From: an uncultured Chloracidobacterium sp.
Lineage (GTDB): Bacteria > Acidobacteriota > Blastocatellia > Pyrinomonadales > Pyrinomonadaceae
Length of the DNA stretch: 64,000 nt
Direction of reading: 5' to 3'
Assembly: GCA_964528325.1 (NCBI GenBank)
Contig: CAZGSC010000001.1
Coordinates: forward strand, 6,003 to 70,002
The notes under the pieces were generated by a model. The model was not told the DNA's origin. It ran no database searches and saw nothing but the letters and a program-made list of their open reading frames with translations. Numbering within the stretch: the stretch's first letter is position 1; the number at the start of each line of letters is the position of its first letter. The position numbers were made by a program, and so were the translations under genes. This document shows positions 9,701 to 38,243 of the stretch, piece after piece.

Positions 9701-10183
9701 CTAAGTCCAATAATTGCGGTCGAGAGAACGGTAATTGATCGCTTCGCTAATATGAGTTGGCCGGATGTTCTCGCTGTTGTCGAGATCGGCTATGGTACGT
9801 GAGACTTTCAAAATGCGGTCATGCGCCCGAGCGGATAAGCCCTGACGGAGCATTGCCTTTTCGAGGAGTTCTTCGCTCTGTGTGTCGAGAGCGCAAAAAG
9901 TACGGATCTGTTTTGGCGACATCGCAGAGTTCGAGAAAACGCCGTCACCATTGAATCGTCTTAGCTGTATCTCGCGTGCCTTAACAACTCGTTCGCGGAT
10001 CACTTCCGAGCTGTCGCCTTCCGGAACTCCACGGCCTCGGAGCTCATTAAACTTAACGGCGGGAACGTCGATATGAATATCTATCCTGTCCAGTAACGGC
10101 CCCGAGATCTTGCCGACGTAGCGTTGTATCTCAGCAGGAGAACATCTACATTCCCGAGAAGAACCGAAGTAGCCACACTTACA
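9701..10183 (-). pseudogene. displaced 3'-end fragment of comM/yifB (last 160 codons plus stop)
   Basis: [50 protein letters not shown]...[13 protein letters not shown] aligns end to end with the last 160 aa of the intact comM at 36681-38243, with 10 substitutions by my count. Similarity stops abruptly 5' of TGTAAGTG and 3' of the stop codon. The 18 upstream codons in the track ORF are unrelated. Confidence 0.85.
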
Positions 10184-10191
10184 CCCCTGCG

Positions 10192-10662
10192 TTGACAAGA
10201 TGCCATTTTGGCATAATCGGCTCAAAACCACCTGCACACGTTATTACCGCAAGACCGTATCCTTATGATCCAAATACGTTAGGTGATTATTTACGGAAAC
10301 GGAGGCTTGATCTGAACCTAACTCAAAAACAACTCGCAGAAGACATATTGCACACGTCTACCTCCAACATCAGAAATTGGGAAGCAAATCGCCGTCAGGT
10401 ATCATTATGCTTCCGGCCCCAGGTTTATGAGTTTATCGGTTTTTTTCCTTGTGATGTTTCGCTCCGACTTGGACTGAGATTGAAACAACGGAGAGAAAGC
10501 CTTGGGCTTTCGATTAGGAAATTGTCTAAGATTCTTGGAGTTGATGCCTCCACAATTGAGAACTGGGAAGACGGCAAACATCAGCCATCCGCCCAAAATC
10601 TACAAACCATCGAATGTTTCCTGGGGTCGTACTTCTGGACGGGATTTGTCGAAAATCAATAA
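10192..10662 (+). CDS. XRE-family transcriptional regulator with two helix-turn-helix (HTH) domains
   Basis: It has two Cro/C1-type HTH units: LGDYLRKRRLDLNLTQKQLAEDILHTSTSNIRNWEANRRQVS and LGLRLKQRRESLGLSIRKLSKILGVDASTIENWEDGKHQPS. The start codon is uncertain. Confidence 0.65.
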   Translation: MTRCHFGIIGSKPPAHVITARPYPYDPNTLGDYLRKRRLDLNLTQKQLAEDILHTSTSNIRNWEANRRQVSLCFRPQVYEFIGFFPCDVSLRLGLRLKQRRESLGLSIRKLSKILGVDASTIENWEDGKHQPSAQNLQTIECFLGSYFWTGFVENQ

Positions 10663-10720
10663 ATGACAGGTTCCGAATTCGCCCATTCGATAGCCAGTCA
10701 TAGAATCATCAGCCGAGCAA

Positions 10721-11869
10721 TCATTTCCCGCTTGCTTGGCCGTAACTGTTGGTCGTTGGCTCGGCGGTTTCTTCGCCGACCTCGCAATAGACCTTTATCA
10801 CGCCCTTTGCGTTCGTAAGGACGTCGAATAGTTGAGCGTGGTTTTCGAGACCGGCAACCGGATGCGTCAATAGACGGGAGAGCCAATCACCGTATTCGAG
10901 AACGGCCTGTGCCATGTCCTTTGCACCGGTCTCAAAATATTCTCGATTTGCGTTGACCGTGCCGATCATTACCTTGTTGCCGAGCACAAAATCGAGATTG
11001 ATCTTGTCGGCCGGAACTTCAACCATGCGATCGCCGCCGGTTACGCTGGAAAGTACGAGAATGCCGTTTTTCGCGAGAGCCTGCATGGCGTCAAAAACGA
11101 TCGGTGAAAAGCCGGTCGCTTCAAAAATAATGTCAAACCCGCCATTTTGAGCGGCATATTGCGGCACGGTAACATCGGCCGTTGAGACATATTTCGCCCC
11201 CAACGACTCTATGAGATCCGAATTGAGGTAAGGCTTCGCCGTGCGGCCAAAGGTAACAACTTCCATACCGCGAAGCCGGAAAACGAGCGTTGCCAAAAGA
11301 CCTATAGTTCCCGCCCCCATGACGGCAGCCCGCTTTGGTTTCCAAACGCGCAGGCGACGTTGCGTCTCGAACGCCTGTGTAATTCCCTTTTGAACAACCG
11401 TCATTGGTTCGAGCAAAACGCCTACATCTTTTAGTCCGCGCGGAATTTTGACGATAAACTCTGCGTCATCAACGTAATACTCGGACAGATAACCGTGACG
11501 AAGATTGATGCCACGTTCAAAGTATGTATCGTCCGTCGTCATGTCGTTCGTGCCAATGACATCGTAGATGCTCGTGCCGGGACGGCGGACTGTCGCAACG
11601 ACATAATCTCCCTTTTTCAGTTCTGTGACATTCAGCCCGACTTCCTCGACCACGCCAAAGCCTTCGTGTCCGATCACGAGAAAGTCTTCGCCGATCGGTG
11701 CCGCACCGTACTCGGCGTTGTTGATCTCTTTGTCGGTGCCGTCAACACCTACGCGCAGAACTTTAACAAGAACACCTCGCCCGTTCGGAATTTCTCCGAT
11801 CTCCGGTTTTGGCATTTCGACAAGATGTGCCGAGTTTTTGATCCCTGGTTTAACTGCTATTGCTTTCAT
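10721..11869 (-). CDS. zinc-dependent medium-chain dehydrogenase, glucose 1-dehydrogenase-like
   Basis: MKAIAVKPG...[17 protein letters not shown]...IGHEGFGVV...[12 protein letters not shown] (Rossmann GxGxxG). The overall layout resembles archaeal-type glucose dehydrogenases of the MDR family. Confidence 0.65.
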
Positions 11870-11925
11870 AATTATTATCTTTTATATCTGTGCTTCAACT
11901 GCGTGGCTAAAACGCAACTCTTACT

Positions 11926-12894
11926 CTATGCAGCTAGTGCCTGCATCCATTCGGTTTGGACTCCCAAATTTGCCAGCGTACCGACAACTCTTTCAGGTTC
12001 ACCCCAGTCACACCAACCGACGTCGCCGACACGCATAACGAGTAGCTCGTCTGAAGAGTTTTCGAGCACTTCGCTGGAGAAATTTGTGTCTTCGATCCAA
12101 GAATAGATTGATCGGATCACGGCAGATTCCTGGCTTGTTCCAAAGAGCTTAGATGCCGCTGCAAACATGCGAAACATTTCCGGCAAACGTTTTTTAAACA
12201 TATTAAGAAAGGTCTCGGCCTTGCCGACCATCACAAAGCTGTTCCACATACATCCATCGGCCATCAGCCTTTCGGCAACTCCGTGTGTCGGCTTTTCCCA
12301 AAACCGGTTGACACGGCTGACGGACTTTGCCATGTCACCGAAGAATGAACTGGCAGGCTCGATCCAACCGTATGACGTCTCGGCCTTTTCCGGTTCTATG
12401 CCAAGCAGAACAATCGACTGTTGATTGAATCCAGCTGTTCGAAATGCCGCTTCGACGTGATCCATAAACGAAGAGTCGTTTGAAAAATAATGATCTGACG
12501 GAAAAAAAGCGACCGTTGCATCCGGCGACATTTTTGCAAGACGCATCAGGCTGTAGAGTATCGCCGGTGCGGTTCCGCGATTCTCTGGCTGGACGACCAT
12601 TTGCGAGCCCGGCACGTTCCAAAGCGGGCGCTCGTAATATCGCTCATGTTTCTGCGTCAGGCTGAAAAATGTGTTTTCCGGCCGGATACGCATAGCGGAT
12701 CGGTTTCTTGTCTTATCAAGAAGGGTTTCGTTGCCCAGTATCGGACAAAATTGTTTTGGGCGTTCGTCACCGGCTATCGCCCGCGTTAGTGAACGAAGAC
12801 GTGTTCCATCGCCGCCTGCCAAAATTATTGCGTGCCGATTGGCTTTATTTGCAGCAAATGTTTTGAAATCTCTGACTGTGGTTTTGAACTTCAT
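11926..12894 (-). CDS. sugar-phosphate nucleotidyltransferase (mannose-1-phosphate guanylyltransferase-like)
   Basis: The N-terminal signature is AIILAGGDGTRLRSLTR...ERPKQFCPILGNETLL. Confidence 0.7.
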   Translation of the reverse strand: MKFKTTVRDFKTFAANKANRHAIILAGGDGTRLRSLTRAIAGDERPKQFCPILGNETLLDKTRNRSAMRIRPENTFFSLTQKHERYYERPLWNVPGSQMVVQPENRGTAPAILYSLMRLAKMSPDATVAFFPSDHYFSNDSSFMDHVEAAFRTAGFNQQSIVLLGIEPEKAETSYGWIEPASSFFGDMAKSVSRVNRFWEKPTHGVAERLMADGCMWNSFVMVGKAETFLNMFKKRLPEMFRMFAAASKLFGTSQESAVIRSIYSWIEDTNFSSEVLENSSDELLVMRVGDVGWCDWGEPERVVGTLANLGVQTEWMQALAA

Positions 12895-13015
12895 TTTTGA
12901 TTCGCTCCCTCGCTAAACTCCATTTACTGAAGCACGTCGAGAGGCAAATATATTCCATTCAAATGTAAATTCGGAGATTCAATATTTCTGTCGGCAAAAA
13001 TACAATGACCGCCTG

Positions 13016-15655: not shown

Positions 15656-16137
15656 CCTTTGTGCTGTGGTTTTTTGGTTTGAAAGTCCTTCCAATTCTTT
15701 TCTCCGTCCTTGATAAAATTGTCCTGGTTCTTTTCCCATGCTTCTTTTGCTTCCTGGTTGTAATTTAGATATAGCTTGCGATCGACGATCTTCCACGTTT
15801 GCGGATCGCCGTCGGCGGTATAGCCATGCGAAACTGCGTACGAGCAATAGCCGCCGAATTGAGGTGCAAAGGCGGATGGATCGGCCTTGAATTTCTCTAG
15901 GTTCTCTGCCGTTGCAAAAAGCCATTTCGCGCCGTTCCATGTGTATTCGAATGCGGGACTGCCCTGTATCGCCGCCTCTTCAGCAAAGAATGCAACCGCG
16001 TCATAACCGCGAACTGCCAGCCCGCTCGGGTCAGTGTTTACCGAATCGACGCCTTCGCGACGAGAACATGCGCCTGCAAAGATCGAGACGAGAACAAGCA
16101 AAAGTATGTAAATGTATTTCATATTATTATTTTTCAA
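15652..16137 (-). CDS. YHS-domain lipoprotein
   Basis: It has a signal plus lipobox-like FAGAC, then GYDAVAFF...[30 protein letters not shown], typical of YHS-domain proteins. Confidence 0.6.
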
Positions 16138-17164
16138 TTAGTCTGACCGCATGCCCATCGGGATCACGAAACATCGCTGCATTTCGAAAACCGAGTTGGT
16201 TATTCGGAAAGGTAATGAGGCCAACTGAGATAAGGTCTGCCTTGTAATTCCTGAGGAAAGTTGCCGCGTCGTTTGCGGCAAAACTCGTTTCCCAATGCCA
16301 TAGGTCGCTGCTGCGCGTGTCGCTTGGAAAAGGTCGGCCGTCAGTGGGCGCTAGGTATTCGAGGAATTCGACCGCGATGCCATCCTCTTTCGTCCTGAGA
16401 CCGGTGATGTGCAGCTTTGCACCAAATACGTTATTGAGGTGTTCCTGTTCAGGGCCGTAGTTGTCACTTGTCCCGGCAACGGTAAGGCCTAGCGTATCGC
16501 GGTAAAATTTCAGGCTTCTTTCCGAATCACCGACGACTATCGCAGTATGATCTATACCAAGAAAGAGCTTTCCGCTTTTTGCCAGGTCGTGCCATTTCGG
16601 TAGGCCCTTTCCATCAGGAAACTGCAAGATCTCGAGGACGTGATTGTCCGGGTCTTTGAAATAAAATGCTCTTATTCCGGCCGCAGCGGTTATATACGCC
16701 GGCAAGATTTGCGGTGCGGTTGACGCGTGTCGAACCTTATTTGAACGCAAAACCTGATACGCCTTTTCCATGTCAGAGACGATGATCGCAATATGTTGAA
16801 ACCAGCGGTCATTGCTTCGCGAATCCACCGGGATCGGATGGCCCTGCGGTGTTAGATATTCCGTTAGCTCAAGCGTTTCACCGCCGAGCTTTAGATCGAC
16901 TATCCTCACGCGAGCCCCAAAGACGCCGGAGAGATGCTCGAAATCGGTGCCCCAAACCTCATTGTCCGAAACCTTTTCAAACGGCAGCACATGCGTGTAA
17001 AAGTCGATCGCTCTGTCCATGTCCGAGACGGTAAAGCCCACGGATTCAACATGAGTGACCGCCTGGCCGTTGGCTGACGACAGGAAAGCCAGCATTGCAA
17101 GCAAGACGGCTATCAGCCAGCCGAGCGGAATTTCTAAAGTTTGTTTTGTTCTAGCGTTAGTCAT
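16127..17164 (-). CDS. secreted two-domain VOC (glyoxalase/bleomycin-resistance/dioxygenase) protein
   Basis: It has a signal peptide, then two repeats of the VOC pattern (HVESVGFTVSDMDRAIDFY...; IDHTAIVVGDSERSLKFYRDTLGL...). Confidence 0.65.
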   Translation of the reverse strand: MTNARTKQTLEIPLGWLIAVLLAMLAFLSSANGQAVTHVESVGFTVSDMDRAIDFYTHVLPFEKVSDNEVWGTDFEHLSGVFGARVRIVDLKLGGETLELTEYLTPQGHPIPVDSRSNDRWFQHIAIIVSDMEKAYQVLRSNKVRHASTAPQILPAYITAAAGIRAFYFKDPDNHVLEILQFPDGKGLPKWHDLAKSGKLFLGIDHTAIVVGDSERSLKFYRDTLGLTVAGTSDNYGPEQEHLNNVFGAKLHITGLRTKEDGIAVEFLEYLAPTDGRPFPSDTRSSDLWHWETSFAANDAATFLRNYKADLISVGLITFPNNQLGFRNAAMFRDPDGHAVRLIEK

Positions 17165-17171
17165 GATCTTT

Positions 17172-18737: not shown

Positions 18738-18748
18738 ATAAAAATTCC

Positions 18749-19591: not shown

Positions 19592-19664
19592 TTCGCTCTC
19601 GCCAGTAAAAATCGTTTGGGATAGAAGTTTTATTCCCGGAAATTGTTTTCCTGCTCAAGGAGAT

Positions 19665-22776: not shown

Positions 22777-22892
22777 ACATCTTCTTTATTAAAACTGCCG
22801 CTGTTTTTATTCCAATTTAATTGTGGGATGGAATATTTTCGAGCGCTGCAGCAATAGCAAGGTACGCACCAGTCTGCGTTGAAAGCAATAAT

Positions 22893-24221
22893 ATGGATAA
22901 GAAAACTAAAATACTGATACTTGGCAGCGGTTTTGGTGGCCTGTACACCGCGCTGAATCTCGACAAGACCTTGGCTCGTGACGAGGACGTCGAGATCACG
23001 CTCGTCAACCGCGAAAACTTTTTCCTCTTTACGCCGATGCTGCACGAAGTTGCGGCGAGCGATCTCGACATCACGCACATTGTCAGCCCCGTTCGCAAAC
23101 TACTAAAGCGCGTCAAGATCTTTAACGGCAGTGTCGAGAATATAGACCTTGCTGCCAAAACCGTAAGCGTCTCGCATGGCAAGGAACACCATCATCATGA
23201 GTTGGAATACGACCATCTCGTGCTTTCGCTCGGCTCGATCACCAATTTTTACGGGAACAAGGGCCTCGAAGAGAACGCCCTGACGATGAAATCCCTCGGC
23301 GATGCGATCTATCTCAGAAATCACATGATCTCAAATCTTGAGGAGGCCGATTTCGAATGCTGTCCGAAGGTTCGCGAGCCGCTGGTGAATTTTGTCGTCG
23401 CGGGCGGCGGCTTTGCGGGCGTAGAAACGATCGCAGGGATCAATGATTTTCTGCGCGAAGCACTAAAATTTTATCCGCACCTTACCGAGGATATGCTGCG
23501 TATCGTTCTGGTTCACGCGGGGGACACGATCTTGCCGGAATTGAGCGAAAAGCTGGGCAAATACTCACAAAAGAAACTCGCTGCACGCGGCGTCGAGATA
23601 CATTTGAATACCAAAGTATCGAAGGTTGACGGCAATCTGGTCACCCTCAGCGACGGCACCGAGATCATCACGAACACAATGATCTGGACCGCGGGAACCG
23701 CGCCAAGCCCTTTGCTCGACACGCTGCCGTGCGACAAAGACCGCGGCAAGGTGTGTGCGAATGAGTTTATGGCAGTGCCCGGTTTCGAAGGCGTATGGGC
23801 CGTCGGCGACAGCGCGGCTATAGTCGATCCAAAAACAGGCAAACTTTATCCGCCGACCGCACAGCACGCGATCAGGCAAGGCAGGATACTCGCCCACAAT
23901 ATACGAGCGTCGATCCGCGGCGGCAAAATGAAACCGTTCGTTTTTGAAACAATCGGGCAGCTTGCGGCTCTCGGACGGCGAACGGGCGTTGCACAGATAT
24001 TCGGTTACAACTTCTCAGGCTTTATCGCCTGGTGGCTGTGGCGGACGATATACTTGATGAAACTGCCGCGTTTCGAAAAAAAACTAAGAGTAGCTCTCGA
24101 CTGGACGCTGGATCTGCTCTTTCAGAAAGATCCCGTGCAATTCCTGACATTGCGGTCACCGACCGTCTCAACCATGGAATCAACGGCACCTCCACGGACG
24201 TATATAGCGACCGCCAGGTAA
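22893..24221 (+). CDS. ndh: type II NADH dehydrogenase (NDH-2), copy 1
   Basis: The start is taken at MDKKTKILILGSGFGGLYTA (first dinucleotide fold). A second fold is at FVVAGGGFAGVE, followed by WAVGDSA. Confidence 0.8.
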   Translation: MDKKTKILILGSGFGGLYTALNLDKTLARDEDVEITLVNRENFFLFTPMLHEVAASDLDITHIVSPVRKLLKRVKIFNGSVENIDLAAKTVSVSHGKEHHHHELEYDHLVLSLGSITNFYGNKGLEENALTMKSLGDAIYLRNHMISNLEEADFECCPKVREPLVNFVVAGGGFAGVETIAGINDFLREALKFYPHLTEDMLRIVLVHAGDTILPELSEKLGKYSQKKLAARGVEIHLNTKVSKVDGNLVTLSDGTEIITNTMIWTAGTAPSPLLDTLPCDKDRGKVCANEFMAVPGFEGVWAVGDSAAIVDPKTGKLYPPTAQHAIRQGRILAHNIRASIRGGKMKPFVFETIGQLAALGRRTGVAQIFGYNFSGFIAWWLWRTIYLMKLPRFEKKLRVALDWTLDLLFQKDPVQFLTLRSPTVSTMESTAPPRTYIATAR

Positions 24222-28152: not shown

Positions 28153-28167
28153 AATGGCTGCTGCCGG

Positions 28168-28791
28168 TTAATTATTATTGTAGAGCAAATCTGCTGCCGC
28201 TAAAGGATCATCGATAGCAAAATGAAGACGTTGGGCAGGAAAGTATATGTTCTCGTAGGCATCGATAGTCTGTTGCCGACCGAGGCCTTCCTGAGACCGA
28301 TCGATGCCCCGGTTTAACGATGTTTCAAAGCCGCATTCGACCCATACGCAGAGATCGAAATGTTTCACATAGCTGCGTTTAAATAGAAAGATACCTTCGA
28401 GCAAAATGATGTCGATGTTTTCGTAAGCATAGCGATGCTTATGGAATTCAGTTGATGTTTCATGAACGTGATCAGCTGTGAGATCAACTCTGCGGTCGTG
28501 TTTTAAGGGAAGGACAAGATCACGGAACATCTCATCGAATCTGATGGCGTTTTCGTAGAAATGCTTGCCCGGCTGTATGCTGCTGAATCGAACATCGGGC
28601 AAATTGAGCCAGCCATCGGCATTTATCAGGGCTAAATTGAAGTTTGCGGATAATGATTCCGCGAGTCTCGACGAAATATAGCCTTTGCCACATGCGTCAA
28701 TGCCGGAAATGCCGACGAGCAAACTTTGCTCTGCCGGCATCTCATTTCGCATTTTCAAAATGCGTTGTTTTGCTATGTCAAGGTCGGTCAT
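28168..28791 (-). CDS. P-loop kinase of the uridine kinase / phosphoribulokinase family
   Basis: It has a Walker A-like VGISGIDACGKGY. The start is taken at MTDLDIAK (28791), which overlaps the upstream stop as ATGA. Confidence 0.55.
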   Translation of the reverse strand: MTDLDIAKQRILKMRNEMPAEQSLLVGISGIDACGKGYISSRLAESLSANFNLALINADGWLNLPDVRFSSIQPGKHFYENAIRFDEMFRDLVLPLKHDRRVDLTADHVHETSTEFHKHRYAYENIDIILLEGIFLFKRSYVKHFDLCVWVECGFETSLNRGIDRSQEGLGRQQTIDAYENIYFPAQRLHFAIDDPLAAADLLYNNN

Positions 28792-30395
28792 TTTACATTC
28801 GGCCGAACGCCGGCGATGTTCAATCGTATTCGATATAGTCCGGTTCGGGCACACAAGTAAAGCGTCTTGCCGTCGTCGTCACCCCATGCCATGTTGTGGA
28901 CATGCTGCGGCGTGCGGATCGTGCCTAGGTGCTTGCCTTCGGGCGACAGAATTTGCAGGCCGCCTGGAGCGGAAACATAAACGTTGCCTGCCGTATCGAC
29001 CTTGATCCCGTCAAGAGCGTCTTCGCCGGGAAACGCGGTAAAGTCAAAGAACAGCTTGCCGTTCTTTAGTGTTCCGTCCGGCTGGACCTCGTAGCGCTTG
29101 ACCACCTTGTTTTTCTCGTCCCAGTTGCCGACGTAGAGATACTTTTCGTCGGGCGAAAATGCAATACCGTTCGGGCCGGTGAACTCTTTGGTCAGCAATT
29201 GGAGCTTTCCTTTGTATAAGGAATAGACGCCTGAGAACGGCAGCTCTTTGCGTTTGTCGTCAAAAAACTTTGGCAATCCAAATGGCGGATCGGTAAAGAA
29301 AAGTGTGCCGTCGGAGCGGTAAACGAGATCGTTCGGACTGTTGAGCCGCTTGCCTTCAAATTTGTCGGCGAGAACAGTTTCGCTGCCGTCTTTTTCGAGA
29401 CGAACAACGCGGTGATTGCCGTGTTGGTTGATTACGAGATCACCCTGCGGATCGAGTGTCAGACCGTTTGAACCAGGCTGGCCGTATTCGGCGATATCAG
29501 AGCCGCTATAGCCGCTCGGCGTGCGGAAAACGCTAAGTTTACCGTCGTTTGAATATTTGTAAATGATGTTCGAGTTCGGATCGCTAAAGAGCAAACCGTC
29601 GCCGACCCAGATCGGCCCTTCGGTAAATTTGAAGCCTTCGGCGAGTTTGAAAACCTTTGGGTTTGGGCCGACGATCTTGTTGATAGCTTCGTCCCTGCGA
29701 TCGACCTCGACATTGACCTCGCTTGGCGTGATCGCGAGCGGGCCGGCTTCGCCTTTGTAAAATTCAAGCTTTGCTTCGCGAACCCAGATGAAGTTGGTCG
29801 GCGGATTTGAGATCGGGCCGTTGATGCCAAATATCGCAAGCTGGATCTTCTGCCCCGGCTTTACATCACGGCCGATAACAAGACGATTCGGCGCGTTCCA
29901 ACCCGCGATAACGGAGCCGCCTTTTTGTCCGAGAAAGCGGGCGATCTCGCCGTTGACCCAAATCTCGGCGTAATCGTCGAGTGCGGTCTGAAATACGACC
30001 GTGGAGCCAACGGTTGAGAAGCCATCGACAAATTCGGGAATTGTTAGATTGACCCGATACCAATTGAACGAGAGCTTGCCGTTACCGCGACGTTTGGCAA
30101 GGTCAGTTGGTGCGACAACTAGCCAGTTGGCATCGTTAAAATCCGCAGCACCGGCATGCGGCGTGTAATCATAGGTTTTAACAGCCGGTCCGCTCGGCTG
30201 ATCGTCGGCACCGGCGGAGTTGAACTGGGCCTCGACAATGCGCGTGTCGCTGTATTTCCATTGGCCGTTGACGGCTTTGACACCATCGATAGTGGCAAGA
30301 TCGATCGATGCCGCGGGCTTGCCGCTCGGCACGTCCTGGGCGATCAAATGAGCCGCTAAAAGTATTGTAAATATGAGTGCGTTAAGAAATTTCAT
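28788..30395 (-). CDS. secreted SMP-30/gluconolactonase/LRE-family beta-propeller with an N-terminal jelly-roll-like domain
   Basis: It has a signal peptide (MKFLNALIFTILLAAHLIAQD). The C-terminal half has repeated propeller motifs (TEGPIWV..., NGLTLDPQGDLVI, PNDLVYRSDGTLFFTDP, GPNGIAFSPDEKYLYV, DGIKVDTAGNVYV). Confidence 0.7.
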   Translation of the reverse strand: MKFLNALIFTILLAAHLIAQDVPSGKPAASIDLATIDGVKAVNGQWKYSDTRIVEAQFNSAGADDQPSGPAVKTYDYTPHAGAADFNDANWLVVAPTDLAKRRGNGKLSFNWYRVNLTIPEFVDGFSTVGSTVVFQTALDDYAEIWVNGEIARFLGQKGGSVIAGWNAPNRLVIGRDVKPGQKIQLAIFGINGPISNPPTNFIWVREAKLEFYKGEAGPLAITPSEVNVEVDRRDEAINKIVGPNPKVFKLAEGFKFTEGPIWVGDGLLFSDPNSNIIYKYSNDGKLSVFRTPSGYSGSDIAEYGQPGSNGLTLDPQGDLVINQHGNHRVVRLEKDGSETVLADKFEGKRLNSPNDLVYRSDGTLFFTDPPFGLPKFFDDKRKELPFSGVYSLYKGKLQLLTKEFTGPNGIAFSPDEKYLYVGNWDEKNKVVKRYEVQPDGTLKNGKLFFDFTAFPGEDALDGIKVDTAGNVYVSAPGGLQILSPEGKHLGTIRTPQHVHNMAWGDDDGKTLYLCARTGLYRIRLNIAGVRPNVK

Positions 30396-30500
30396 GATGC
30401 TTAGACTCCCGAATCTTATTTACGAAAGGCCGCCGAGAACGCAGAGTTGTATGAAATAGTAAGTTGCCCTCTGTGTGCCTCGCGGCCTTGCGTTGAATTG

Positions 30501-31370
30501 CTAACGAACCTTGACGACGTAATACAGGAACGCGCCGTCAACTTTTTTGAACCAATGCGGCGTGCCTTTTGGCACGATGACGACGTCGCCTTTTTTGAGC
30601 TGGCGCGTCTCGCCGCCGTCTATCATCGAACCGCGAAATTCATTTGCCGCGATCATTTTGGGATCGACAGACTTGCCGCCGGTGATAAACGTCGCCGTGC
30701 CGTCGAGGACATAGATAATGTCGGTGTCGAGTTCGTGGACCTCGCTCATGCCCGCCTTTTCGCGGCGGCTGGCGTGGACCATGTAGTTCTCGCCGTTGGA
30801 ACCGTCTTCGAGCACCGCTCCTTTTGAAAAGGCGTCGGAAACGGTCTTGCTGTCAAAAAAAGTGACTGGCAGCATTTTGGCATTGCTCAAGGCTTCGGCT
30901 CCGGCTGTGGCGAGTTCCTCGTCCTGCACTGCCGACATCGCACCGGAAACACCGACGCCGCCGATAAGCTGGCCGTCAACCATGATCGGCACACCGCCCT
31001 GCAGCGGCGTAAAATCCGGCAGAGCGACCATCGCCGTGCGGCCGTTCTTGATAACGTCCTCAAAGAATTTGGTCGGACGTTTGAACATAACGGCGGTCTT
31101 TGCCTTGCCGATCGATATGTTCGCACCGGCGCTGAATGTTCCGTCGAGCCGTTCCAACGCGACGAGGTTTCCGCCGTCGTCAACAACGGCGATCACTCCG
31201 CCGGGCGCGTTATTCTTTCTCGCATATTCCTTTGCCGCAGCGATCGCGGTCCGAGCGCCTTCAAGGGTGATCGATTTTTTTTCTGTTGTTTGCGCATTAG
31301 TTGCGAACGCCAATAGAAGCAGCGACGCAGTAATAAATCCGGTATTCTTAAAAATGCTTTTCATAATCAT
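30501..31370 (-). CDS. secreted GlcG/HbpS-like (DUF336) domain fused to a cupin domain
   Basis: It has a signal peptide. The DUF336 pattern is ITLEGARTAIAAAKEYARKNNAPGGVIAVVDDGGNLVALERLDG...ISIGKAKTA...GGVPI. The C-terminal cupin-like sequence is HELDTDIIYVLDGTATFITGG...GDVVIVPKGTPHWF. Confidence 0.6.
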   Translation of the reverse strand: MIMKSIFKNTGFITASLLLLAFATNAQTTEKKSITLEGARTAIAAAKEYARKNNAPGGVIAVVDDGGNLVALERLDGTFSAGANISIGKAKTAVMFKRPTKFFEDVIKNGRTAMVALPDFTPLQGGVPIMVDGQLIGGVGVSGAMSAVQDEELATAGAEALSNAKMLPVTFFDSKTVSDAFSKGAVLEDGSNGENYMVHASRREKAGMSEVHELDTDIIYVLDGTATFITGGKSVDPKMIAANEFRGSMIDGGETRQLKKGDVVIVPKGTPHWFKKVDGAFLYYVVKVR

Positions 31371-31418
31371 TCCTTTTGCGGGCGACCGTGACCGCCCGTT
31401 TATCTTTTTGTAACTTTC

Positions 31419-32153
31419 TTAATTTGATTTCGCCGTGATGGTGATACACAACACCTCTTTGGTTTCCGGGTAAGTAAAGCCGTCCTTTACAAAATGAACA
31501 ACCCCATTCTCAGCTGCCCCCGTGTTCTTTGCACTTTGACGCGGCGCTTGTTCGCTGCCGATCCCGGGGGCCTGGTTGACTTCCGTTCCGGCATCCCAGA
31601 GCTGAAAATCGCCCGTGATGTCACCGCTGACAGGGTTGCCCTTTGCGTCAAACAACGCGAGCGCGGTTGCCGGTGCGTAAAACAGGTCGTTCGATTGGCC
31701 GTACATTGCTATGAGATCCAGCTTCATGCCCTTGGTTGCCGTGAACGTAAATTCAAATGCACCGCCGGGCAGAATAGGCGACGGCATATCGGCACCGACC
31801 GGCTTGTTGAAGATGCCCATATTTGCGCTGCCGATAACCGTCAGCAGATCCGCGGCAAACAACTCCGGATTGCCATCCTCAGCCTGTGCTTCGAGAGCCG
31901 CTGATGCTTTTTTGCCTTCATTAAAGAAGTCCGAATTTTTGCCTGTAATCACATAAATGCCCGGCGACACTGCAAATGGGTATTTCGTTCCGTCCTGAGC
32001 GGTGAGGCCATCTTTATCCGAAATATTTTCGACGCGAACGGTAAATGTCGCTTGCCTTTTTCCATTGCTGCTAAATGCAAATGTGCTCGTTTGCACGCTC
32101 ACGACCAAGGCCGTGGCGATTGTCATTGCTGTTATTAATTTTTGTTTCAACAT
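31419..32153 (-). CDS. secreted spondin_N-like domain protein
   Basis: It has a signal peptide (MLKQKLITAMTIATALVVSVQTSTFA). FTVRVENIS...PFAVSPGIYVITG...FNEGKKAS...LEAQAEDGNP is reminiscent of bacterial spondin-N proteins. Confidence 0.45.
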   Translation of the reverse strand: MLKQKLITAMTIATALVVSVQTSTFAFSSNGKRQATFTVRVENISDKDGLTAQDGTKYPFAVSPGIYVITGKNSDFFNEGKKASAALEAQAEDGNPELFAADLLTVIGSANMGIFNKPVGADMPSPILPGGAFEFTFTATKGMKLDLIAMYGQSNDLFYAPATALALFDAKGNPVSGDITGDFQLWDAGTEVNQAPGIGSEQAPRQSAKNTGAAENGVVHFVKDGFTYPETKEVLCITITAKSN

Positions 32154-32325
32154 ATAAATTCTCTCCGTAAATGTTCGATTGGTTTCACGCAAGCCGCACT
32201 TCGTATGGCCGCGTTTCAGCTTCGTAAATCCCAGAGTGCCGCCGTCTTATTCCAAAAAGAATCTTTGGAATAATCCGACCCTAGTGCGGAATTTCAAAAG
32301 CGGAGACCAGTATTTCCAAAAGCCT

Positions 32326-32865
32326 ATGAATGAGGATCTAGAAATTGAAGACTCACTTGAGTCTGCGGAAGATGTGCTGCTTAAAACACTCATCGACGAA
32401 CTGGAGCGCAGCGTGCAGATCATCGACGCTGTCGACGACATTTCGTTTTGCAGGATCGCAAACAACACCGGAGGTATTGGTGCCCAGTTCCGGCACAATC
32501 TGGATTTTGTCGGCAGCCTCTTAAAAGGCATCGACATTGGCCGGATCGATTACAACGATCGGGAGCGGGATGAACGGGTCGAGACAGATCGGCAATACGC
32601 TGCGAGACGATTCACAGACGCAATAGAACGGCTGAGCGGATTGAGTCCGAGGATCATGGCAAAGAGTGTGCTCATTCGTTCAGAGATCGATAACGACACG
32701 TGGCTGTCGTCGAGCGTCGCACGCGAGGTCGAATTTGTTCACAGCCACACAGTTCATCATCATGCGTTGATTGGTGAAAAGTTGGCCGGTTTTGGAATCA
32801 AGGTCACTGAGAATTTTGGCGTTGCTCCGTCAACACTCGAATATTGGAAAAAGAAGGCTGCGTAA
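32326..32865 (+). CDS. DinB-like (four-helix, His-rich) family protein
   Basis: The start is taken at MNEDLEIED. The motifs FRHNLDF and HSHTVHHHALI resemble DinB/DinB_2 metal-binding histidines. Confidence 0.4.
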   Translation: MNEDLEIEDSLESAEDVLLKTLIDELERSVQIIDAVDDISFCRIANNTGGIGAQFRHNLDFVGSLLKGIDIGRIDYNDRERDERVETDRQYAARRFTDAIERLSGLSPRIMAKSVLIRSEIDNDTWLSSSVAREVEFVHSHTVHHHALIGEKLAGFGIKVTENFGVAPSTLEYWKKKAA

Positions 32866-32888
32866 GCAGTCGCATTTAGGGGGAAATT

Positions 32889-33302
32889 ATGTCATCAAAA
32901 TTAAACATTATTAGCTGGATCTGCCGCATCATCGTGGCAGTCATATTATTTCAAACGCTGTTTTTCAAATTTACCGGAGCCGAGGAATCGAAATACATAT
33001 TCTCGACGCTGATGGGGCCGGAACTTGAAGCATATGGACGCATTGGTTCGGGCGTCGTTGAACTTTTTGCCGTCATTCTTTTGCTCATTCCGGGCAAGGC
33101 GTGGCTTGGTGCATTTGTCGCGCTGGGCACGATCTCGGGAGCGATCATGAGTCATCTGACGATGCTCGGCATTGTTGTTAAAGATGACGGCGGGCTGCTT
33201 TTCGGTTTGGCGGTCACGGTTTTTGTCTTAAGCGCGGTCGTTCTGCTGATCCATCGCCGTGATTTGCCGATCCTTGGCCGATTCTTAACTGTCCAACTCT
33301 AA
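32889..33302 (+). CDS. DoxX-like small membrane protein
   Basis: It is 137 aa with four hydrophobic segments. The N-terminus is ...AVILFQTLFFKFTGAEES. Confidence 0.5.
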   Translation: MSSKLNIISWICRIIVAVILFQTLFFKFTGAEESKYIFSTLMGPELEAYGRIGSGVVELFAVILLLIPGKAWLGAFVALGTISGAIMSHLTMLGIVVKDDGGLLFGLAVTVFVLSAVVLLIHRRDLPILGRFLTVQL

Positions 33303-33316
33303 CCGGCACAACACAC

Positions 33317-34981
33317 ATGCCCGACTTTTTACAAACCTTTCAACAAAGCGTTCCGGAATTATCCGCGGCCGCTTTGTTCTTTCTGTTCTTCTTTGGCACG
33401 TTTGTCAGCGAAGATGCTGCGTGTCTCGCCGCAGGAGCGACAGCGGCAAACGGCAGTATTGGATTTGCATCTGCATTAACGGCGTGTTTTCTCGGCATTT
33501 TTGCGGGTGATCTTTTGCTGTATGCGGCCGGCCGTGTGTTTGGAGATAGGATCTTCGAAAACCGTCTCGTGCAGCGGTTCGTTTCGGATGAGACAAAAAC
33601 AAAAGCCTCAGTATGGCTCGATAAGAACGGAGCTACGGCTGTGTTTCTTTCGCGTTTTGTGACTGGCCTGAGACTTCCCACATATCTCGCGGCCGGCGCA
33701 CTGCAGACCGATCTTAGAAAATTTGTGCTTTATTTCCTGCTCGCTTCCGCAATCTGGACGCCGATACTCGTTGGAGCGGCAACATTTACGCAACTTGGCA
33801 TTTTCCGACAGCACGCGATCGCTGGATTGATCATTATCGCTCTGGTCATTCGGCTGGCACTCAAATATTCATCACGAAAAAACCGTCGATTGCTCGTTGG
33901 GCGAATAAAGCGGATCGTGAATTGGGAATTCTGGCCGATACAGCTCTTTTACGCACCTGTAGTTCTATACGTGATCGGTCTCGCGTTCAACCACCGCAGC
34001 CTGACTGCCTTTACAGCGGTCAATCCCGTAATGCCGGCCGGCGGATTTAAGGGAGAATCGAAAAATGACATATACGAGCTGTTAAAAAAATCTGATGTTG
34101 CTCAGCCTTTTATGTTACGGCACAAACTATTCAGCTTAACTGAACCTGTTGCGGAAAAGGTGCTTCAGGCGCAACGTCTCATTGACGAACATCATTTGAA
34201 CTTTCCGCTGGTGCTCAAACCCGATGCCGGAGAACGCGGCAAGGACGTTCGTTTTGTCGGCTCATTCAACGAACTGGAAAGCGAGATCGCAGTGGCTAAA
34301 ACCGACCTCATTCTGCAAGAAAGTGTGTCTGGTGAAGAGATCAGCATTTTTTATTATCGTTACCCTGGTGATGTAAATGGCCAAATCTTTTCGATCACCG
34401 AAAAGGATTTTCCGTCTGTTGTTGGGGACGGACGCTCAACGTTGGAGGAGCTTATCCTGAACGACCAGCGTGCGGTATGTGTTGCCGAAAAATACTTCGA
34501 ACAAAATCGCGAACGGCTCGATAAGATTCCTGCCGCGGGCGAAGACGTGCAACTGATCGGCATCGGAACACATTCGCTCGGAGCTATATTTCTCGACGGT
34601 GACTGGCTAAAAACTGGCGCTCTGGAATCGAAGATCAATGACATTTGTCGCGGATCAGACGGATTTTATTTCGGACGCTTCGATATTCGGGCACCCACAT
34701 TTGCTGATATTCAACGGGGTGAGAATTTTAAGATCATCGAACTAAACGGCGTCACAAGTGAATCGACCAACATCTACGACCCGCGATATTCACTTTTTGA
34801 CGCATATCGGATTTTGTTTCGTCAGTGGCGAATAGCGTTTGAGATCGGTGCCGAAAACATTAAACTTGGAGCCAGTAGGACGAGCATTTTGGATCTTGCG
34901 AAACTGACTTTTGGGCTGGACATAGCGATGAAAAGACCAATCTCGATCGCAAATTTGAAACAGACAGACCAATGTGCGTGA
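33317..34981 (+). CDS. DedA/SNARE-associated membrane domain fused to a C-terminal ATP-grasp ligase domain
   Basis: The N-terminal ~200 aa are DedA-like (FFFGTFVSEDAACLAAG...GDLLLYAAGRVFG...FLSRFVTGLRLP). The C-terminal ~300 aa are ATP-grasp-like (FPLVLKPDAGERGKDV...LQESVSGEEISIFY...FKIIELNGVTSEST). Confidence 0.65.
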   Translation: MPDFLQTFQQSVPELSAAALFFLFFFGTFVSEDAACLAAGATAANGSIGFASALTACFLGIFAGDLLLYAAGRVFGDRIFENRLVQRFVSDETKTKASVWLDKNGATAVFLSRFVTGLRLPTYLAAGALQTDLRKFVLYFLLASAIWTPILVGAATFTQLGIFRQHAIAGLIIIALVIRLALKYSSRKNRRLLVGRIKRIVNWEFWPIQLFYAPVVLYVIGLAFNHRSLTAFTAVNPVMPAGGFKGESKNDIYELLKKSDVAQPFMLRHKLFSLTEPVAEKVLQAQRLIDEHHLNFPLVLKPDAGERGKDVRFVGSFNELESEIAVAKTDLILQESVSGEEISIFYYRYPGDVNGQIFSITEKDFPSVVGDGRSTLEELILNDQRAVCVAEKYFEQNRERLDKIPAAGEDVQLIGIGTHSLGAIFLDGDWLKTGALESKINDICRGSDGFYFGRFDIRAPTFADIQRGENFKIIELNGVTSESTNIYDPRYSLFDAYRILFRQWRIAFEIGAENIKLGASRTSILDLAKLTFGLDIAMKRPISIANLKQTDQCA

Positions 34982-35697
34982 TATATTTGGCTTTCAGCCA
35001 ACATCCGGATCATCCGCTGATATTACTTGCCAACCGGGACGAGTTTTATGACCGGCCATCGCAGGCCGCGAGGTTTTGGGATGATCTTCCGAACATATAC
35101 GGCGGACGTGATCTGGTTGGCGGCGGCACATGGCTAGGCGTCACCAAAGGCGGCAGGTTTGCAGCGGTGACTAATTATCGCGATCCGTCGGCTCCGATCG
35201 GTATACGATCGCGCGGCAATTTAGTCGCTGATTTTCTCAAATCCAACGAGCGAGCAAACCATTATTTAGGGCAAGTAAAAACCGTATCGAACGAATATTC
35301 AGGCTTTAACCTGATCGCCGGCGAACTTTCCAGCGGCAGGCATGAACTTTTTTATTACTCAAATCGCGGAAATGATGTCCAAGAACTCGGTCCCGGGATA
35401 TATGGCCTGAGCAATCATCTCCTCGATACTCCTTGGCCAAAAGTCGCGAAAGGTAAGGTCCAATTCGCCAACCTACTAAGCAATGGCCATTTTTCTCCGG
35501 AGGAATTGTTCGAAATTCTCGCCGACGAATCTCTCGCCGACGACAAAAATCTGCCCTCAACGGGCGTACCTTATGAGACAGAGAAAGCTATCTCCGCAGT
35601 ATTTATCAAAACACCCGGCTACGGCACCCGTTGCTCGACTATACTGACTTTCGATAATAATTTTGATTGGAAATTCGAGGAGCGGGTATTTGTTTGA
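34972..35697 (+). CDS. NRDE-family (TANGO2/DUF833) protein
   Basis: It starts MCVIYLAF...LILLANRDEFYDRP (NRDE motif) and continues GGTWLGV, FAAVTNYR. It overlaps the upstream gene by 10 nt. Confidence 0.75.
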   Translation: MCVIYLAFSQHPDHPLILLANRDEFYDRPSQAARFWDDLPNIYGGRDLVGGGTWLGVTKGGRFAAVTNYRDPSAPIGIRSRGNLVADFLKSNERANHYLGQVKTVSNEYSGFNLIAGELSSGRHELFYYSNRGNDVQELGPGIYGLSNHLLDTPWPKVAKGKVQFANLLSNGHFSPEELFEILADESLADDKNLPSTGVPYETEKAISAVFIKTPGYGTRCSTILTFDNNFDWKFEERVFV

Positions 35698-35699
35698 GG

Positions 35700-36518
35700 T
35701 CAGGAAAACATCCGTCGGTATTTTTCGTTCATCCTTCGCACGTCAAACACCACAAAAAAATCGATTGTACCAAATTGGCGGTCGATCATTGGCGGGCTGC
35801 AGACTCGGGCTCCGAGACGGAGATACATATTGAAAAGAGCAGGCAGGTCAACATCGTTCTCGTCCGCTGTATCAGTCACACATAGACCATTACGAAGTGG
35901 CTTGACCGTCAATTGTTCGTGAAAATATCCTTCACGGGAAAGTTGGCGAAATGCCTTTCTGCCTGTCTCAGGATTTGCGTCAAAGATCGAGCAGCAGCCA
36001 AAAAAATATCGTTTGCCGGTGTGTTCAAGATACGCCAGAAGGCCCTTCCATAATAGAAAAAGCACTTTCGTGTTTCGGTGGTCTTTTGAAATACAGGCCC
36101 GGCCGATCTCAATGCCGTGCCGCAGCACGTCCTTCGGTAAGTCTTCGATCGTAAACTCGCTCGCTGAGTAAAAGCCGCTTATGGAGCCCGCGGATTCGAG
36201 TGTGTTCAGGCGATATGTGCCTACAGTCAAACCGGTGTCACGATCGATCACGATCAAATGCCGACATTTGAAATCGTAGGCGTCGAATTCCAGCCGAGAG
36301 TCGGTGGGCTGCGCCGTTTCACCGCCAAGCTCAACAGTGAATACTTCATGGCGAAGCCTAAGCGCCGTGGCCACTTCGCCTGCATTTCTTGCAAGACGGA
36401 CTTCATACCGCCCCGATTCGATCAAAGGAAAATCGTCCGCAACACGTTCAACAGAAACGCGCGGTCGGTGTTTGAAAACTGGTTTGGTTGATACGCGGAT
36501 CTTACCTAGAGCTTGCAT
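35700..36518 (-). CDS. GNAT-type N-acyltransferase (OlsB / hemolysin-like N-acyl amino acid synthase family)
   Basis: LRHEVFTVELG...DAYDFKCRHLIVIDRDTGLTVGTYRL...GIEIGRACISKDHRN...LWKGLLAYL is typical of the Acetyltransf_5 family. Confidence 0.6.
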   Translation of the reverse strand: MQALGKIRVSTKPVFKHRPRVSVERVADDFPLIESGRYEVRLARNAGEVATALRLRHEVFTVELGGETAQPTDSRLEFDAYDFKCRHLIVIDRDTGLTVGTYRLNTLESAGSISGFYSASEFTIEDLPKDVLRHGIEIGRACISKDHRNTKVLFLLWKGLLAYLEHTGKRYFFGCCSIFDANPETGRKAFRQLSREGYFHEQLTVKPLRNGLCVTDTADENDVDLPALFNMYLRLGARVCSPPMIDRQFGTIDFFVVFDVRRMNEKYRRMFS

Positions 36519-36680
36519 AGAAATTCAACGATACGCATTGGTGATCGTAGCCCAGTTAGTAGATTTAAGTTTCACACTCACTGCCTCGTTGGTTGTATCC
36601 CTAGTCACGAGAAAACTATTCCGCAAAAAACGATCACTCCGTTGCAAATGTTACATATGAACGCCGATTTGAGAATGTAG

Positions 36681-38243
36681 CTAAGTCCAATAGTTTCGGT
36701 CGAGCGAGCGGTAATTGATGGCCTCGCTAATATGGTTGGGCTGGATGTTTTCGCTGCCGTCCAGATCGGCGATGGTGCGTGAGACCTTTAAGATGCGATC
36801 ATGTGCCCGCGCGGATAAACCCTGACGGAGCATTGCCTTTTCAAGCAACTCTTCGCTCTGCGAGTCAAGAGCGCAGAATGTGCGGATCTGTTTAGGAGAC
36901 ATTGCCGAGTTTGAAAAAACTCCGCCGGAACTGAATCGTCTTAGCTGTATTTCGCGTGCTTTGACAACTCGTTCGCGGATCACTTCCGAGCGATCGCCCT
37001 CCGGCACACCGCGGCCACGAAGTTCATTGAACTTAACGGCGGGTACGTCGATGTGAATATCTATTCTGTCCAATAGCGGTCCCGAGATCTTGCCGACATA
37101 TCGCTGTATCTCAGAGGGCGAGCATTTACATTCGCGGGATGAGCCGAAGTAGCCGCACTTACAAGGATTCATAGAGGCTACGAGTGTAAAGTTCGCCGGA
37201 AAGGTCAACGAAGTTGCAGCACGAGAGATCGTGACCGTCTTGTCTTCCATCGGCTGGCGCAAAACCTCGAGAACGCTGCGGTCAAATTCCGGTAATTCGT
37301 CGAGAAACAAGACCCCGAGATGTGAGAGAGAAACTTCACCCGGTTTAGGTATCGAGCCGCCGCCGATCAGTCCTGCCTGCGAAACGGTATGATGCGGCGA
37401 TTTAAATGGCCGCTCAATGATCAAACCTGCTTTACCAGTTAGGCCTGCGACAGAGTGGATCTTAGTTATCTCTATTGCCTCTTCAAATTCCAGGGGCGGC
37501 AGAATGGTCGGCAAACGCTTGGCAAGCATCGTCTTGCCCGAACCCGGCGGGCCGATAAACAGGATGTTGTGGCCGCCCGCGCTGGCGACCTCGAGAGCCC
37601 GTTTAGCGGTCTGCTGGCCGCGCACCTCGTTAAGATCCACACGATATTTGTTCTCGCGGGAACTCAAATCCGAAATATCGAGCCTCAGCGGCCTGACGGC
37701 AGTTTCGCGTCCTGTTTGCAGGTCTTGCGACAGTTCTGCCGCTGTGCGGAGATCTTTGACCGGAAAGACATTGATGCCGTTGACGACTGCTGCTTCGGTC
37801 GCATTTTCGTCTGGAAGCAGCAGGTTTTTAACGCCGGCCTCACGAGCTTTTAGAGCGATGGATAAGGCTCCGCGAACAGGCCTCACTCGTCCGTCGAGCG
37901 ACAATTCGCCTACGCTCATCGTTTGCTGCATACTGTCGATCCCAAGATCGCCCGCCGCACCAAGAATCGCCAAAGCAATGGGCAGATCGAAGGCCGCTCC
38001 CTCTTTGCGGACGTCGGCCGGAGCAAGGTTGACGGTGATCTTTTGGATCGGGAAAAAGTAGCGGCTGTTCGTGATCGCTGCGCGGATGCGCTCGCGCGAC
38101 TCGCGGATAGCAGTATCCGGCAAACCGACTACGGTAAAGTTTGGAGACTGGTCGTTCTCAGCGCTCGGACGCAGGGCAACCTCGATGTCCACAACCAGAG
38201 CATCGATGCCGTACACGGTCGCCGATTGCGAGAGGAAAAGCAT
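36681..38243 (-). CDS. comM: YifB/ComM Mg-chelatase-like AAA+ ATPase, full length
   Basis: It is 520 aa. It has an N-terminal Lon-protease-like ChlI domain, the Walker [19 protein letters not shown], and the C-terminal ...[15 protein letters not shown] typical of the family. Confidence 0.85.

Follow-up and report, generated by a model that had tools for sequence, protein, structure and literature searches.

In a 64,000-nt stretch of an Acidobacteriota genome from the Blastocatellia/Pyrinomonadaceae group (hereafter, the window), the 3' end of the transformation gene comM occurs twice, once as part of an intact gene and once as an orphan on the far side of 26.5 kb of other genes. We consider the DNA from 10184 to 37163 to be probably a discrete, non-autonomous integrative unit, inserted site-specifically at comM codon 361 by a recombinase that is encoded elsewhere. 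The unit would consist of the 26.5-kb cargo together with its own version, 483 nt long, of the comM 3' end. Below, Ri denotes the comM 3' end of the intact gene, Ro the orphan in the window, and Ro' a third version carried by another contig (L174); segment A is comM codons 1 to 360, on the host side, I is the interval, and B is the left flank. A slash marks a junction. The features on which the argument turns are as follows.

36681 to 38243, minus strand: intact comM (P0001), 520 amino acids, a YifB/ComM AAA+ ATPase with Pfam matches to Mg_chelatase (3e-96), ChlI, and Mg_chelatase_C.
36681 to 37163, minus strand: Ri, the 3' end present in the intact comM; codons 361 to 520 plus the stop, contiguous with the interval.
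9701 to 10183, minus strand: Ro, the orphan comM 3' end; codons 361 to 520 plus the stop, an open frame with derived residues R373, N496, and R501.
10184 to 36680: interval I, the 26.5-kb cargo, with ~26 open reading frames (ORFs) of metabolic, envelope, and regulatory families (Pfam, NCBIfam, PHROGs).
37156 to 37163, minus strand: putative left recombination boundary (attL side of the attachment, or att, sites), ...ATGAATCCT/TGTAAGTGC..., at the Cys361 codon of the conserved CKCGYFG motif, placed by the similarity boundary and the end of contig L167.
10176 to 10183, minus strand: putative right recombination boundary (attR side), ...CAACGCAGGGG/TGTAAGTGT..., placed by alignment of the copies.

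We defined the repeat by aligning the minus strands of 9651 to 10283 and 36631 to 37263 and by direct counting. The two copies lie in direct orientation and give a gapless alignment of 483 nt (160 codons and the stop), with 77 differences (84.1% identity) distributed 8/7/62 over codon positions 1, 2, and 3, and their proteins differ at 10 of 160 residues. Similarity begins abruptly at TGTAAGTG (codons CKCG, from ComM residue 361) and stops at the TAG stop codon, and the sequences flanking the copies are unrelated on both sides. A first-pass annotation of this DNA had described a repeat of the last 160 codons plus the stop on the minus strand, running from CKCG to the stop between unrelated flanks, with 10 protein differences, mostly third-position changes in the DNA, and an orphan frame without stops; alignment and counting agree with all of this, including 62 of the 77 DNA differences at third positions. 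Two in-frame stops lie 20 codons upstream of the open frame of Ro, which is therefore a true fragment. Ri and Ro share no exact run longer than 28 nt and only 8 nt at the boundary itself, and the rest of the 64-kb window is free of additional degenerate comM pieces.

The differences between the copies carry the mark of selection. By the Nei-Gojobori method, Ri and Ro are separated by a dS of 1.08 and a dN of 0.036 (dN/dS 0.034), and the functional 5' part of comM is separated from its closest known relative by a dS of 1.32 with a dN/dS of 0.029. Because the two comparisons match, the copies represent two functional histories that were brought together recently. This supports the view, already put forward in the first-pass annotation, that Ri and Ro are orthologous versions that evolved under purifying selection, with a dN/dS of about 0.03 like that of the 5' part. 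The three 3'-end versions (Ri, Ro, and Ro') are mutually 78 to 84% identical in DNA, with dS of 1.1 to 2.1, and 89 to 94% identical in amino acids; set against the dS of 1.3 for the 5' part, this range indicates partners about as distant as different species of the clade. Neither orphan shows relaxed constraint, which argues that displacement was recent.

We sought independent assemblies through the exact g35 protein, at one end of the interval, and the exact g12 protein, near the other end; all comparison contigs with junctions come from metagenome assemblies. The exact g35 protein (P0241) occurs on 9 contigs from at least 8 samples, and Ri lies upstream on all six that reach far enough (L165 to L170), contiguous with the interval at 99.9 to 100% identity. 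Two of these also enter the 5' part of comM: L165/L181 corresponds to window positions 33366 to 46628 at 99.9% and L168 to positions 34798 to 37804 at 100%, and each runs from the 5' part through Ri into the interval. L166, L169, and L170 contain Ri together with interval sequence. The junction of the comM 5' part with Ri is the same in every contig that crosses it, namely, the window, L165, and L168. The remaining contig, L167 (SRR29927283_44839, Logan), matches positions 30751 to 37163 at 100% and ends exactly at the first base of the repeat, which is what a fork in the assembly graph would produce and suggests one at 37163.

The exact g12 protein occurs on three further contigs, and at this end of the interval the partners differ. 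L174 (Logan SRR29927283, the same sample as L167) follows the window from 14052 to 10184 with 1 mismatch in 3,869 nt and, from the identical base, carries Ro' (...GGGG/TGCAAGTGTGGA...). Ro' has an open frame and matches Ro at 378 of 483 nt and Ri at 377 of 483 (~78%); its differences from Ro are distributed 15/10/80 over the codon positions, with a dN/dS of ~0.04. Beyond Ro', L174 continues for 958 nt that are unrelated to the window and encode an F5/8 type C domain protein. L176 (ENA ERZ25038124) follows the window from 12185 to 10184 at 100% and then passes directly into Ri, matching it at 100% over 102 nt (...GGGG/TGTAAGTGCGGC...); the same 102 nt have 17 mismatches to Ro, and the switch lies within 8 nt of the boundary. 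This join of the interval end to Ri is either attP-like, from an excised circle, or a tandem junction, both of which give the same sequence. The third contig, L175, matches positions 12495 to 10188 and stops 4 nt before the boundary.

In all, the same interval end (...CGCAGGGG/TGY...) meets Ro in the window, Ro' in L174, and Ri in L176, always at the same base, and the partners diverge from each other from nt 3 (Ro') or nt 9 (Ri versus Ro) onward. Divergence rises within a few bases of the boundary from ~0.03% in the interval to >10% in the repeat. A single interval end with three comM 3' partners at one base is most simply read as site-specific recombination at codon 361. The boundary lies within the most conserved peptide of ComM, the CKCGYFG region (picked as such by the locus finder), as is usual for att sites. 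The first-pass annotation had proposed an element that replaces the comM 3' end and delimits an island of ~27 kb (10184 to 37163), and the sharp ends, the three partners at one base, and the replicated comM junction all speak for it. Its suggestion that the island is immobilised now seems unlikely, given a near-identical interval (1 mismatch in 3.9 kb) in different junction contexts.

A mechanism of the following kind would account for these observations. Recombination would take place at the first bases of codon 361 (TG/YAAGTG), inside CKCGYFG. On integration, the unit's own 3' end would join the host's comM 5' part and leave the gene intact, and the previous 3' end would be displaced to the far side as the orphan. 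By the topology of Campbell-type integration, the inserted segment would be Ri plus the interval, and Ro would be the displaced former gene end, either native to the host or left by an older resident unit. The reverse reaction, or a second integration, would produce the junction of the interval end with Ri. Since the unit has no recombinase of its own, we infer that it is non-autonomous, with a catalyst supplied in trans by a related autonomous element or by the host genome, as for the cis-mobilisable elements (CIMEs) found beside integrative and conjugative elements (ICEs).

The search for a catalyst covered all window ORFs with Pfam and those unassigned by Pfam with NCBIfam and PHROGs, and it included a six-frame scan for catalytic motifs. 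No integrase, transposase, or serine, tyrosine, or DDE recombinase was detectable in the 64 kb with these libraries, and the six-frame scan for tyrosine- and serine-recombinase motifs found nothing in the window, in agreement with the integrase-free island described earlier. Families of conjugation, replication, and phage structure, packaging, or lysis are absent from the interval and from the window (Pfam, NCBIfam, PHROGs), and a scan of viral contigs with the orphan comM 3' end returned no related contig. A prophage was rejected on these grounds. We also rejected an AbaR-type, Tn7-like transposon: there is no transposase family and there are no inverted repeats, the duplication is 483 nt long and divergent, and comM is intact. 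Inverted or other terminal repeats are absent from the interval ends. Direct repeats of the target's 3' end flank the unit, as in elements that replace a gene end, and comM retains all its domains; att-site flanks combined with an absence of recombination and transfer genes are also what characterizes CIMEs.

Two genes at the ends of the unit deserve mention here.

10192 to 10662, plus strand: g11, a tandem-HTH XRE-type regulator with two stretches of Pfam HTH_3, an NCBIfam DicA-like match (1e-15), and a place among repressors in PHROGs.
35700 to 36518, minus strand: g35, an OlsB-like N-acyltransferase (Pfam Acetyltransf_5; NCBIfam OlsB models at 1e-42, below the cut-off).

With its start just 8 nt from the right boundary, the g11 ORF points into the unit, and it encodes the only candidate DNA-binding protein predicted at the unit ends; we treat it as a lead only. 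Its N-terminal HTH matches the VC1465 Xer-activation-factor family (NF040522) at 36 bits against a cut-off of 70, a generic HTH likeness only, and ordinary XRE families outscore that family. An integrative mobile element exploiting Xer (IMEX) is disfavoured by the site, since the target here is comM codon 361 and inspection of the junction by eye showed no dif-like dyad. At the other end, g35 is the first cargo gene and starts 162 nt after the comM stop.

What does the unit carry? Beyond g11 and g35, the families identified in the interval include a zinc-dependent alcohol dehydrogenase, a nucleotidyltransferase, a GH63-like hydrolase, a glyoxalase, a GMC oxidoreductase, an MIP channel, and a subtilase; two extracytoplasmic function (ECF) sigma factors with zf-HC2 anti-sigmas, an NDH-2 type NADH dehydrogenase, a sigma54 activator, CMD, and PNPOx; a uridine-kinase-like protein, SMP-30/gluconolactonase, an HbpS-cupin, a spondin-domain protein, and a MauE-like protein; and a DedA/VTT fusion and TANGO2. 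Several small ORFs, such as g22 and g31, are without a family assignment in Pfam, NCBIfam, and PHROGs. The earlier estimate of the span, ~27 kb, stands, and its count of 28 genes becomes ~26 ORFs. The NDH-2 gene of the interval (22821 to 24221, plus strand) has a paralogue in the right flank (53304 to 54632, minus strand), the two being ~27 to 31% identical as judged by cross-matches in related loci.

In composition, the interval cannot be told from its surroundings: its GC content is 0.503 against 0.511 and 0.504 in the flanks, GC3 is alike, and a tetranucleotide permutation test of interval versus flanks gives p = 0.80. The contrast with the flanks that the first-pass annotation proposed to look for is absent, and the cargo is not typical foreign DNA. 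Its gene order is also conserved. In a metagenome scan with g35, many contigs keep the order and orientation of the window at 45 to 88% amino acid identity, as g35-g34-g33-g32-g31-g30-g29-g28-(g27)-g24-g23 or as g35...g21-g18-g17-g16-g15. Among the contigs with the block (including L094, L096, L103, L104, L121, and L158) are ones of 229 kb and 1 Mb. The closest block relative is L173, where g35 is 87% identical and the DNA is 78 to 84% identical over window positions 28211 to 36630. In all seven of these contigs, comM never adjoins the block, and the gene upstream of g35 differs each time. With its order kept in so many contigs, the interval amounts to a broadly conserved block, located within comM in this species, and not to a patchy accessory island, and a classical horizontally acquired island, as judged by composition (GC, tetranucleotides, GC3) and patchy distribution, was rejected. 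Its members across these contigs are the glyoxalase, the GMC oxidoreductase, MIP, the subtilase, the ECF sigma factors with their zf-HC2 anti-sigmas, SMP-30, the HbpS-cupin, the spondin-domain and MauE-like proteins, the DedA/VTT fusion, TANGO2, and the OlsB-like acyltransferase. The block (window 10721 to 36518) always begins at g35, and it may be a functional supercluster, for membrane lipid or envelope stress, or a recurrent mobile block. In L173 (10001 to 20819; ERZ25039524 contig_10322), DNA homology to the window sets in ~40 nt beyond the stop codon of a VWA-domain gene that lies upstream, compared with ~50 nt beyond the comM stop in the window. This raises the question of whether the block in L173 is docked at the 3' end of another gene.

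On the far side of Ro lies the left flank.

1 to 9700: left flank B, encoding a DUF3300 protein, a patatin-Omp85 fusion, and an EEP-family hydrolase, without a recombinase or a further comM piece.

Between the EEP-family gene and the stop of Ro is ~1 kb (8690 to 9700) with weak TTG-start ORFs only; it is unusually long, apparently non-coding, and without a match in Pfam, NCBIfam, PHROGs, or Rfam. Left flank B (on L180) and the flank upstream of comM (on L190) are both present at 100% identity in sample SRR14092369. The sole tRNA or Rfam landmark in the window is a tRNA-Val at 59183 to 59257, far from the unit, and promoter and terminator scans of the window gave results at chance level.

Upstream of comM, the gene order g39 to g45 is common to the window and its relatives, and g38 is extra in the window. 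This gene (38909 to 44041, plus strand) encodes a 1710-amino-acid FG-GAP/NosD/dockerin/cohesin protein between comM and g39, and it is absent at that place in L004, L009, L012, and L026. Logan contigs L184, L185, L186, and L189, from four samples, all begin at 43949, within the 3' end of g38, which suggests a structural variant. Downstream of comM, every close relative has different genes (an acyl-CoA synthetase, ABC transporters, a glycogen-debranching enzyme, a polysaccharide cluster, GerE regulators), and these regions contain no interval genes, no left-flank genes, and no recombinase. Among homologues of the left-flank gene g7, identity does not exceed 72%, and none adjoins comM.

One relative has a displaced comM end of its own. 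In L006 (7815 to 10634; JANLTF010000557.1), the gene after an intact comM is a single peptidase C39-like ORF, beyond which lies a 141-nt comM 3' fragment in direct orientation. The fragment comprises codons 474 to the stop after 520, is ~78% identical to the contig's own comM end, and has the radical change of ILKVSR to ILWVSK; the contig ends 133 nt further on. This shows that displaced comM ends recur in this clade.

The first-pass annotation proposed to learn from close relatives which 3' end is native; the relatives do not reveal it. Intact ComM has relatives that are 79 to 93% identical overall (79 to 85% in species-representative genomes, with the best, at 92 to 93%, in a large protein collection). 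The two C-termini of the window are closest to each other, at 150 of 160 residues; against all 119 other ComM proteins they share at most 145 of 160 (141 to 145). As Ri and Ro are about equally distant from all database relatives, phylogeny does not say which is native. A test for a discontinuity at codon 361 in the DNA of 18 relatives was uninformative, all pairs being 65 to 83% identical. Discordance between N- and C-terminal identity in other ComM proteins, considered as a sign of 3'-end swapping, reflects mostly uneven conservation; ComM residues 220 to 400 are nearly invariant and 400 to 470 variable. In one pair, P0044 and P0120 (L177, 265 to 1827; L179, 867 to 2432), comM DNA is ~70 to 80% identical up to ~nt 865 to 935 and nearly identical from there through the stop codon into the downstream flank. 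We rejected this mosaic as support for site-specific swapping: with identity running past the stop, it is plain homologous recombination.

Several observations weigh against a site-specific integrative unit. Neither a cognate recombinase nor an autonomous partner element sharing the att site was identified, with no integrase beside comM in 15 relatives or within the window, so the catalyst is hypothetical. No empty site (the comM 5' part followed by Ro and the left flank), which the first-pass annotation had proposed to seek in relatives, was found in any collection searched, the search covering 80 genome loci around ComM relatives, the 120 best ComM matches, the contexts of g7 homologues, and exact-protein look-ups; gene order around comM and g7 is too fluid, and the collections hold no conspecific genome without the unit. 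The cargo is a block conserved across Acidobacteriota away from comM, with a composition like that of the flanks, which is unusual for a mobile island. The divergence between Ro and Ro' is uneven, at 10.6% in the first 113 nt versus 25% in the rest (p ~0.03), although even that first part is far from identical. L176 is a contig of 1.1x coverage that reaches 102 nt into the repeat. The window's own junction at 10183/10184 is present in this contig alone, with junctions of the same type elsewhere that have other partners. The fragment in L006 starts at codon 474, not 361, and may be a deletion or truncated remnant, or it may mean that the site is not unique. Finally, L174 may represent either this unit inserted in another host or a further unit that has docked on the right-hand side, so that either segment may be the one that moved; the two cannot be separated because the comM 5' part in SRR29927283 is not linked to Ri, L167 breaking at that point.

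In the alternative that we rank highest, the same system operates with roles reversed. Here, comM and the interval would be stable chromosome, and modules made of a comM 3' end plus cargo would insert by accretion where the interval end meets a comM 3' end. Ro with B, Ro' with its own downstream sequence, and a second copy of Ri plus the interval would then be alternative downstream modules, and the three informative contigs at that end do all differ, while the junction of the comM 5' part with Ri is constant in the window, L165, and L168. The cargo is a conserved chromosomal block, and the composition of the interval is like that of the comM-upstream flank, with the left flank slightly more distant from both (0.274 versus 0.23). 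However, Campbell-type topology makes the segment between the intact gene and the orphan the inserted one, the block is not beside comM in any relative examined, and the L176 junction needs the interval itself to be duplicated or circularised. We regard a reversal of roles as unlikely on balance.

Could the arrangement have arisen with no dedicated recombinase at all? A comM 3' part with its downstream genes might have been imported once from a related lineage, by homology-facilitated illegitimate recombination anchored in the comM core or by a single Campbell-type crossover of a circularised fragment, and later variants might have come from ordinary recombination or conversion. This fits with the lack of a recombinase in the window, with cargo that resembles a close relative's native neighbourhood and has a host-like composition, and with a hypervariable region downstream of comM. 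Mosaics by homologous recombination do occur in comM of this clade (P0044/P0120, with the break at ~nt 865 to 935), and the orphan boundary in L006 is different. We favoured homology-facilitated illegitimate recombination after finding the L006 orphan, and we downgraded it when the L174 and L176 junctions proved to lie at one and the same base. Illegitimate joining is not expected to hit a single nucleotide repeatedly, as it would have to for these three partners. A crossover or conversion tract would keep the 5' part of the orphan unchanged and would not switch within 2 to 8 nt of the homology edge, and the rise in divergence from 0.03% to >10% falls exactly at the boundary. An origin without a dedicated enzyme therefore strikes us as quite improbable.

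We are similarly doubtful that the unit has a catalyst of its own that the profile libraries fail to recognise, or that g11 redirects a host recombinase (e.g., one of the Xer type) to comM in the manner of IMEX elements. Either would explain site-specific behaviour without a recognisable recombinase; g11 lies 8 nt from the crossover with a sub-threshold match to VC1465, and g22 and g31 are small ORFs without a family. Yet that match is of the generic HTH kind, far under its cut-off and outscored by XRE families, g30 and g31 are members of the conserved block in distant genomes, and no dif-like dyad is evident by eye at the junction. An assembly artefact, with the window contig or L174 and L176 as chimeras of co-occurring related strains, is very unlikely: although all are metagenome assemblies, the window's interval/orphan junction is unreplicated, and L176 has such low coverage, the 8 nt shared at the boundary and the longest exact Ri/Ro match of 28 nt are too short for a k-mer chimera there, three assemblies from different pipelines and samples have the junction at the same base, and both window flanks recur at 100% in SRR14092369.

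An integrative unit acting at codon 361, the reading we prefer, would join a known principle to an unfamiliar setting. That integrative elements rebuild the 3' end of a target gene is textbook knowledge, and comM is known as a target in Gammaproteobacteria of elements that bear an integrase and destroy the gene. What differs here is that the host is an uncultured soil Acidobacteriota, comM is preserved, the unit has no recombinase, the replacement end is long (483 nt), and the cargo is 26 kb of conserved metabolic, envelope, and regulatory genes with host-like composition. To our knowledge, almost nothing is known about mobile DNA in soil Acidobacteriota. Units of this kind escape island finders based on integrases or composition, and, if common, they would provide a route for core-like gene blocks between species. 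It is tempting to go further and suppose that a segment moves precisely in and out of a comM codon without any known type of recombinase in cis, either with g11 recruiting a host recombinase at a non-dif site or with a recombinase of an unrecognised family. We think this rather unlikely, but if it is true, the 3' end of comM would serve a soil clade as a general docking site, and large ordinary chromosomal blocks would be exchanged between species there while comM, a transformation gene, stays functional.

How does this unit compare with known systems? We found no report in the literature of elements that replace the comM 3' end. Integrase-bearing mobile genetic elements do occupy comM in Aggregatibacter, Mannheimia, Francisella, Pseudomonas syringae, and Acinetobacter; these encode a CF65_00446-like tyrosine integrase, and by the published account their insertion disrupts comM and blocks transformation (Croucher et al. 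2016, PMC4774983). As presented there, their insertion is orthologous and conserved across divergent hosts, and we liken them to our unit by target gene, not by position within comM. In contrast to that account, comM is intact here and there is no integrase. In Acinetobacter baumannii, comM also houses the AbaR and Tn6019-Tn6022 resistance islands (PMC11441513). The first-pass annotation had drawn this parallel, which holds for comM as the target, and for a large island inside it, and is otherwise superficial. AbaR islands are Tn7-like, with transposition genes, terminal inverted repeats, a 5-bp target duplication, and an inactivated comM, all of which are absent here.

Other likenesses lie in how elements without an integrase, or with a spare gene end, behave. 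The gonococcal genetic island and IMEX elements depend on host XerCD acting at dif, and a small HTH protein (XafT/VC1465) can activate the host recombinase. Like our unit, these are integrative elements without their own integrase; unlike it, they integrate at dif and not in a gene, whereas here no dif-like site was recognised by eye and the likeness to VC1465 is sub-threshold and generic. The e14 element and phage 21 reportedly occupy the icd 3' end in Escherichia coli. They resemble our unit in sitting inside a protein-coding gene, bringing an alternative 3' end with many synonymous differences, keeping the gene functional, and leaving an orphan in direct orientation; they differ in having their own integrase beside att, a phage origin, and a duplicated segment of 165 bp, whereas here the segment is 483 bp, with neither phage genes nor an integrase.

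In architecture, our unit corresponds both to e14 and phage 21 at icd and to ICESt3 with its CIMEs at fda. ICESt1, ICESt3, and related CIMEs lie at the fda 3' end in Streptococcus thermophilus. CIMEs have att flanks in the 3' end of a housekeeping gene and no recombination or transfer genes; a recombinase acting in trans mobilises them, and they accumulate as tandem arrays by accretion. Tandem accretion of this kind would also explain the junction of the interval end with Ri. The differences are that no autonomous partner or integrase was found here, that the cargo is a conserved chromosomal block and not a decayed ICE, and that the phylum is another. Displacement of C-terminal ends, with orphan 3' modules, is also a feature of rhs and cdiA loci. 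There, as here, displaced 3' fragments from successive acquisitions lie downstream of an intact gene and point the same way as it does. Their orphans are different toxin tips with immunity genes and variable core lengths, whereas the alternative ends of comM are orthologous (89 to 94% amino acid identity) and begin at one exact base.

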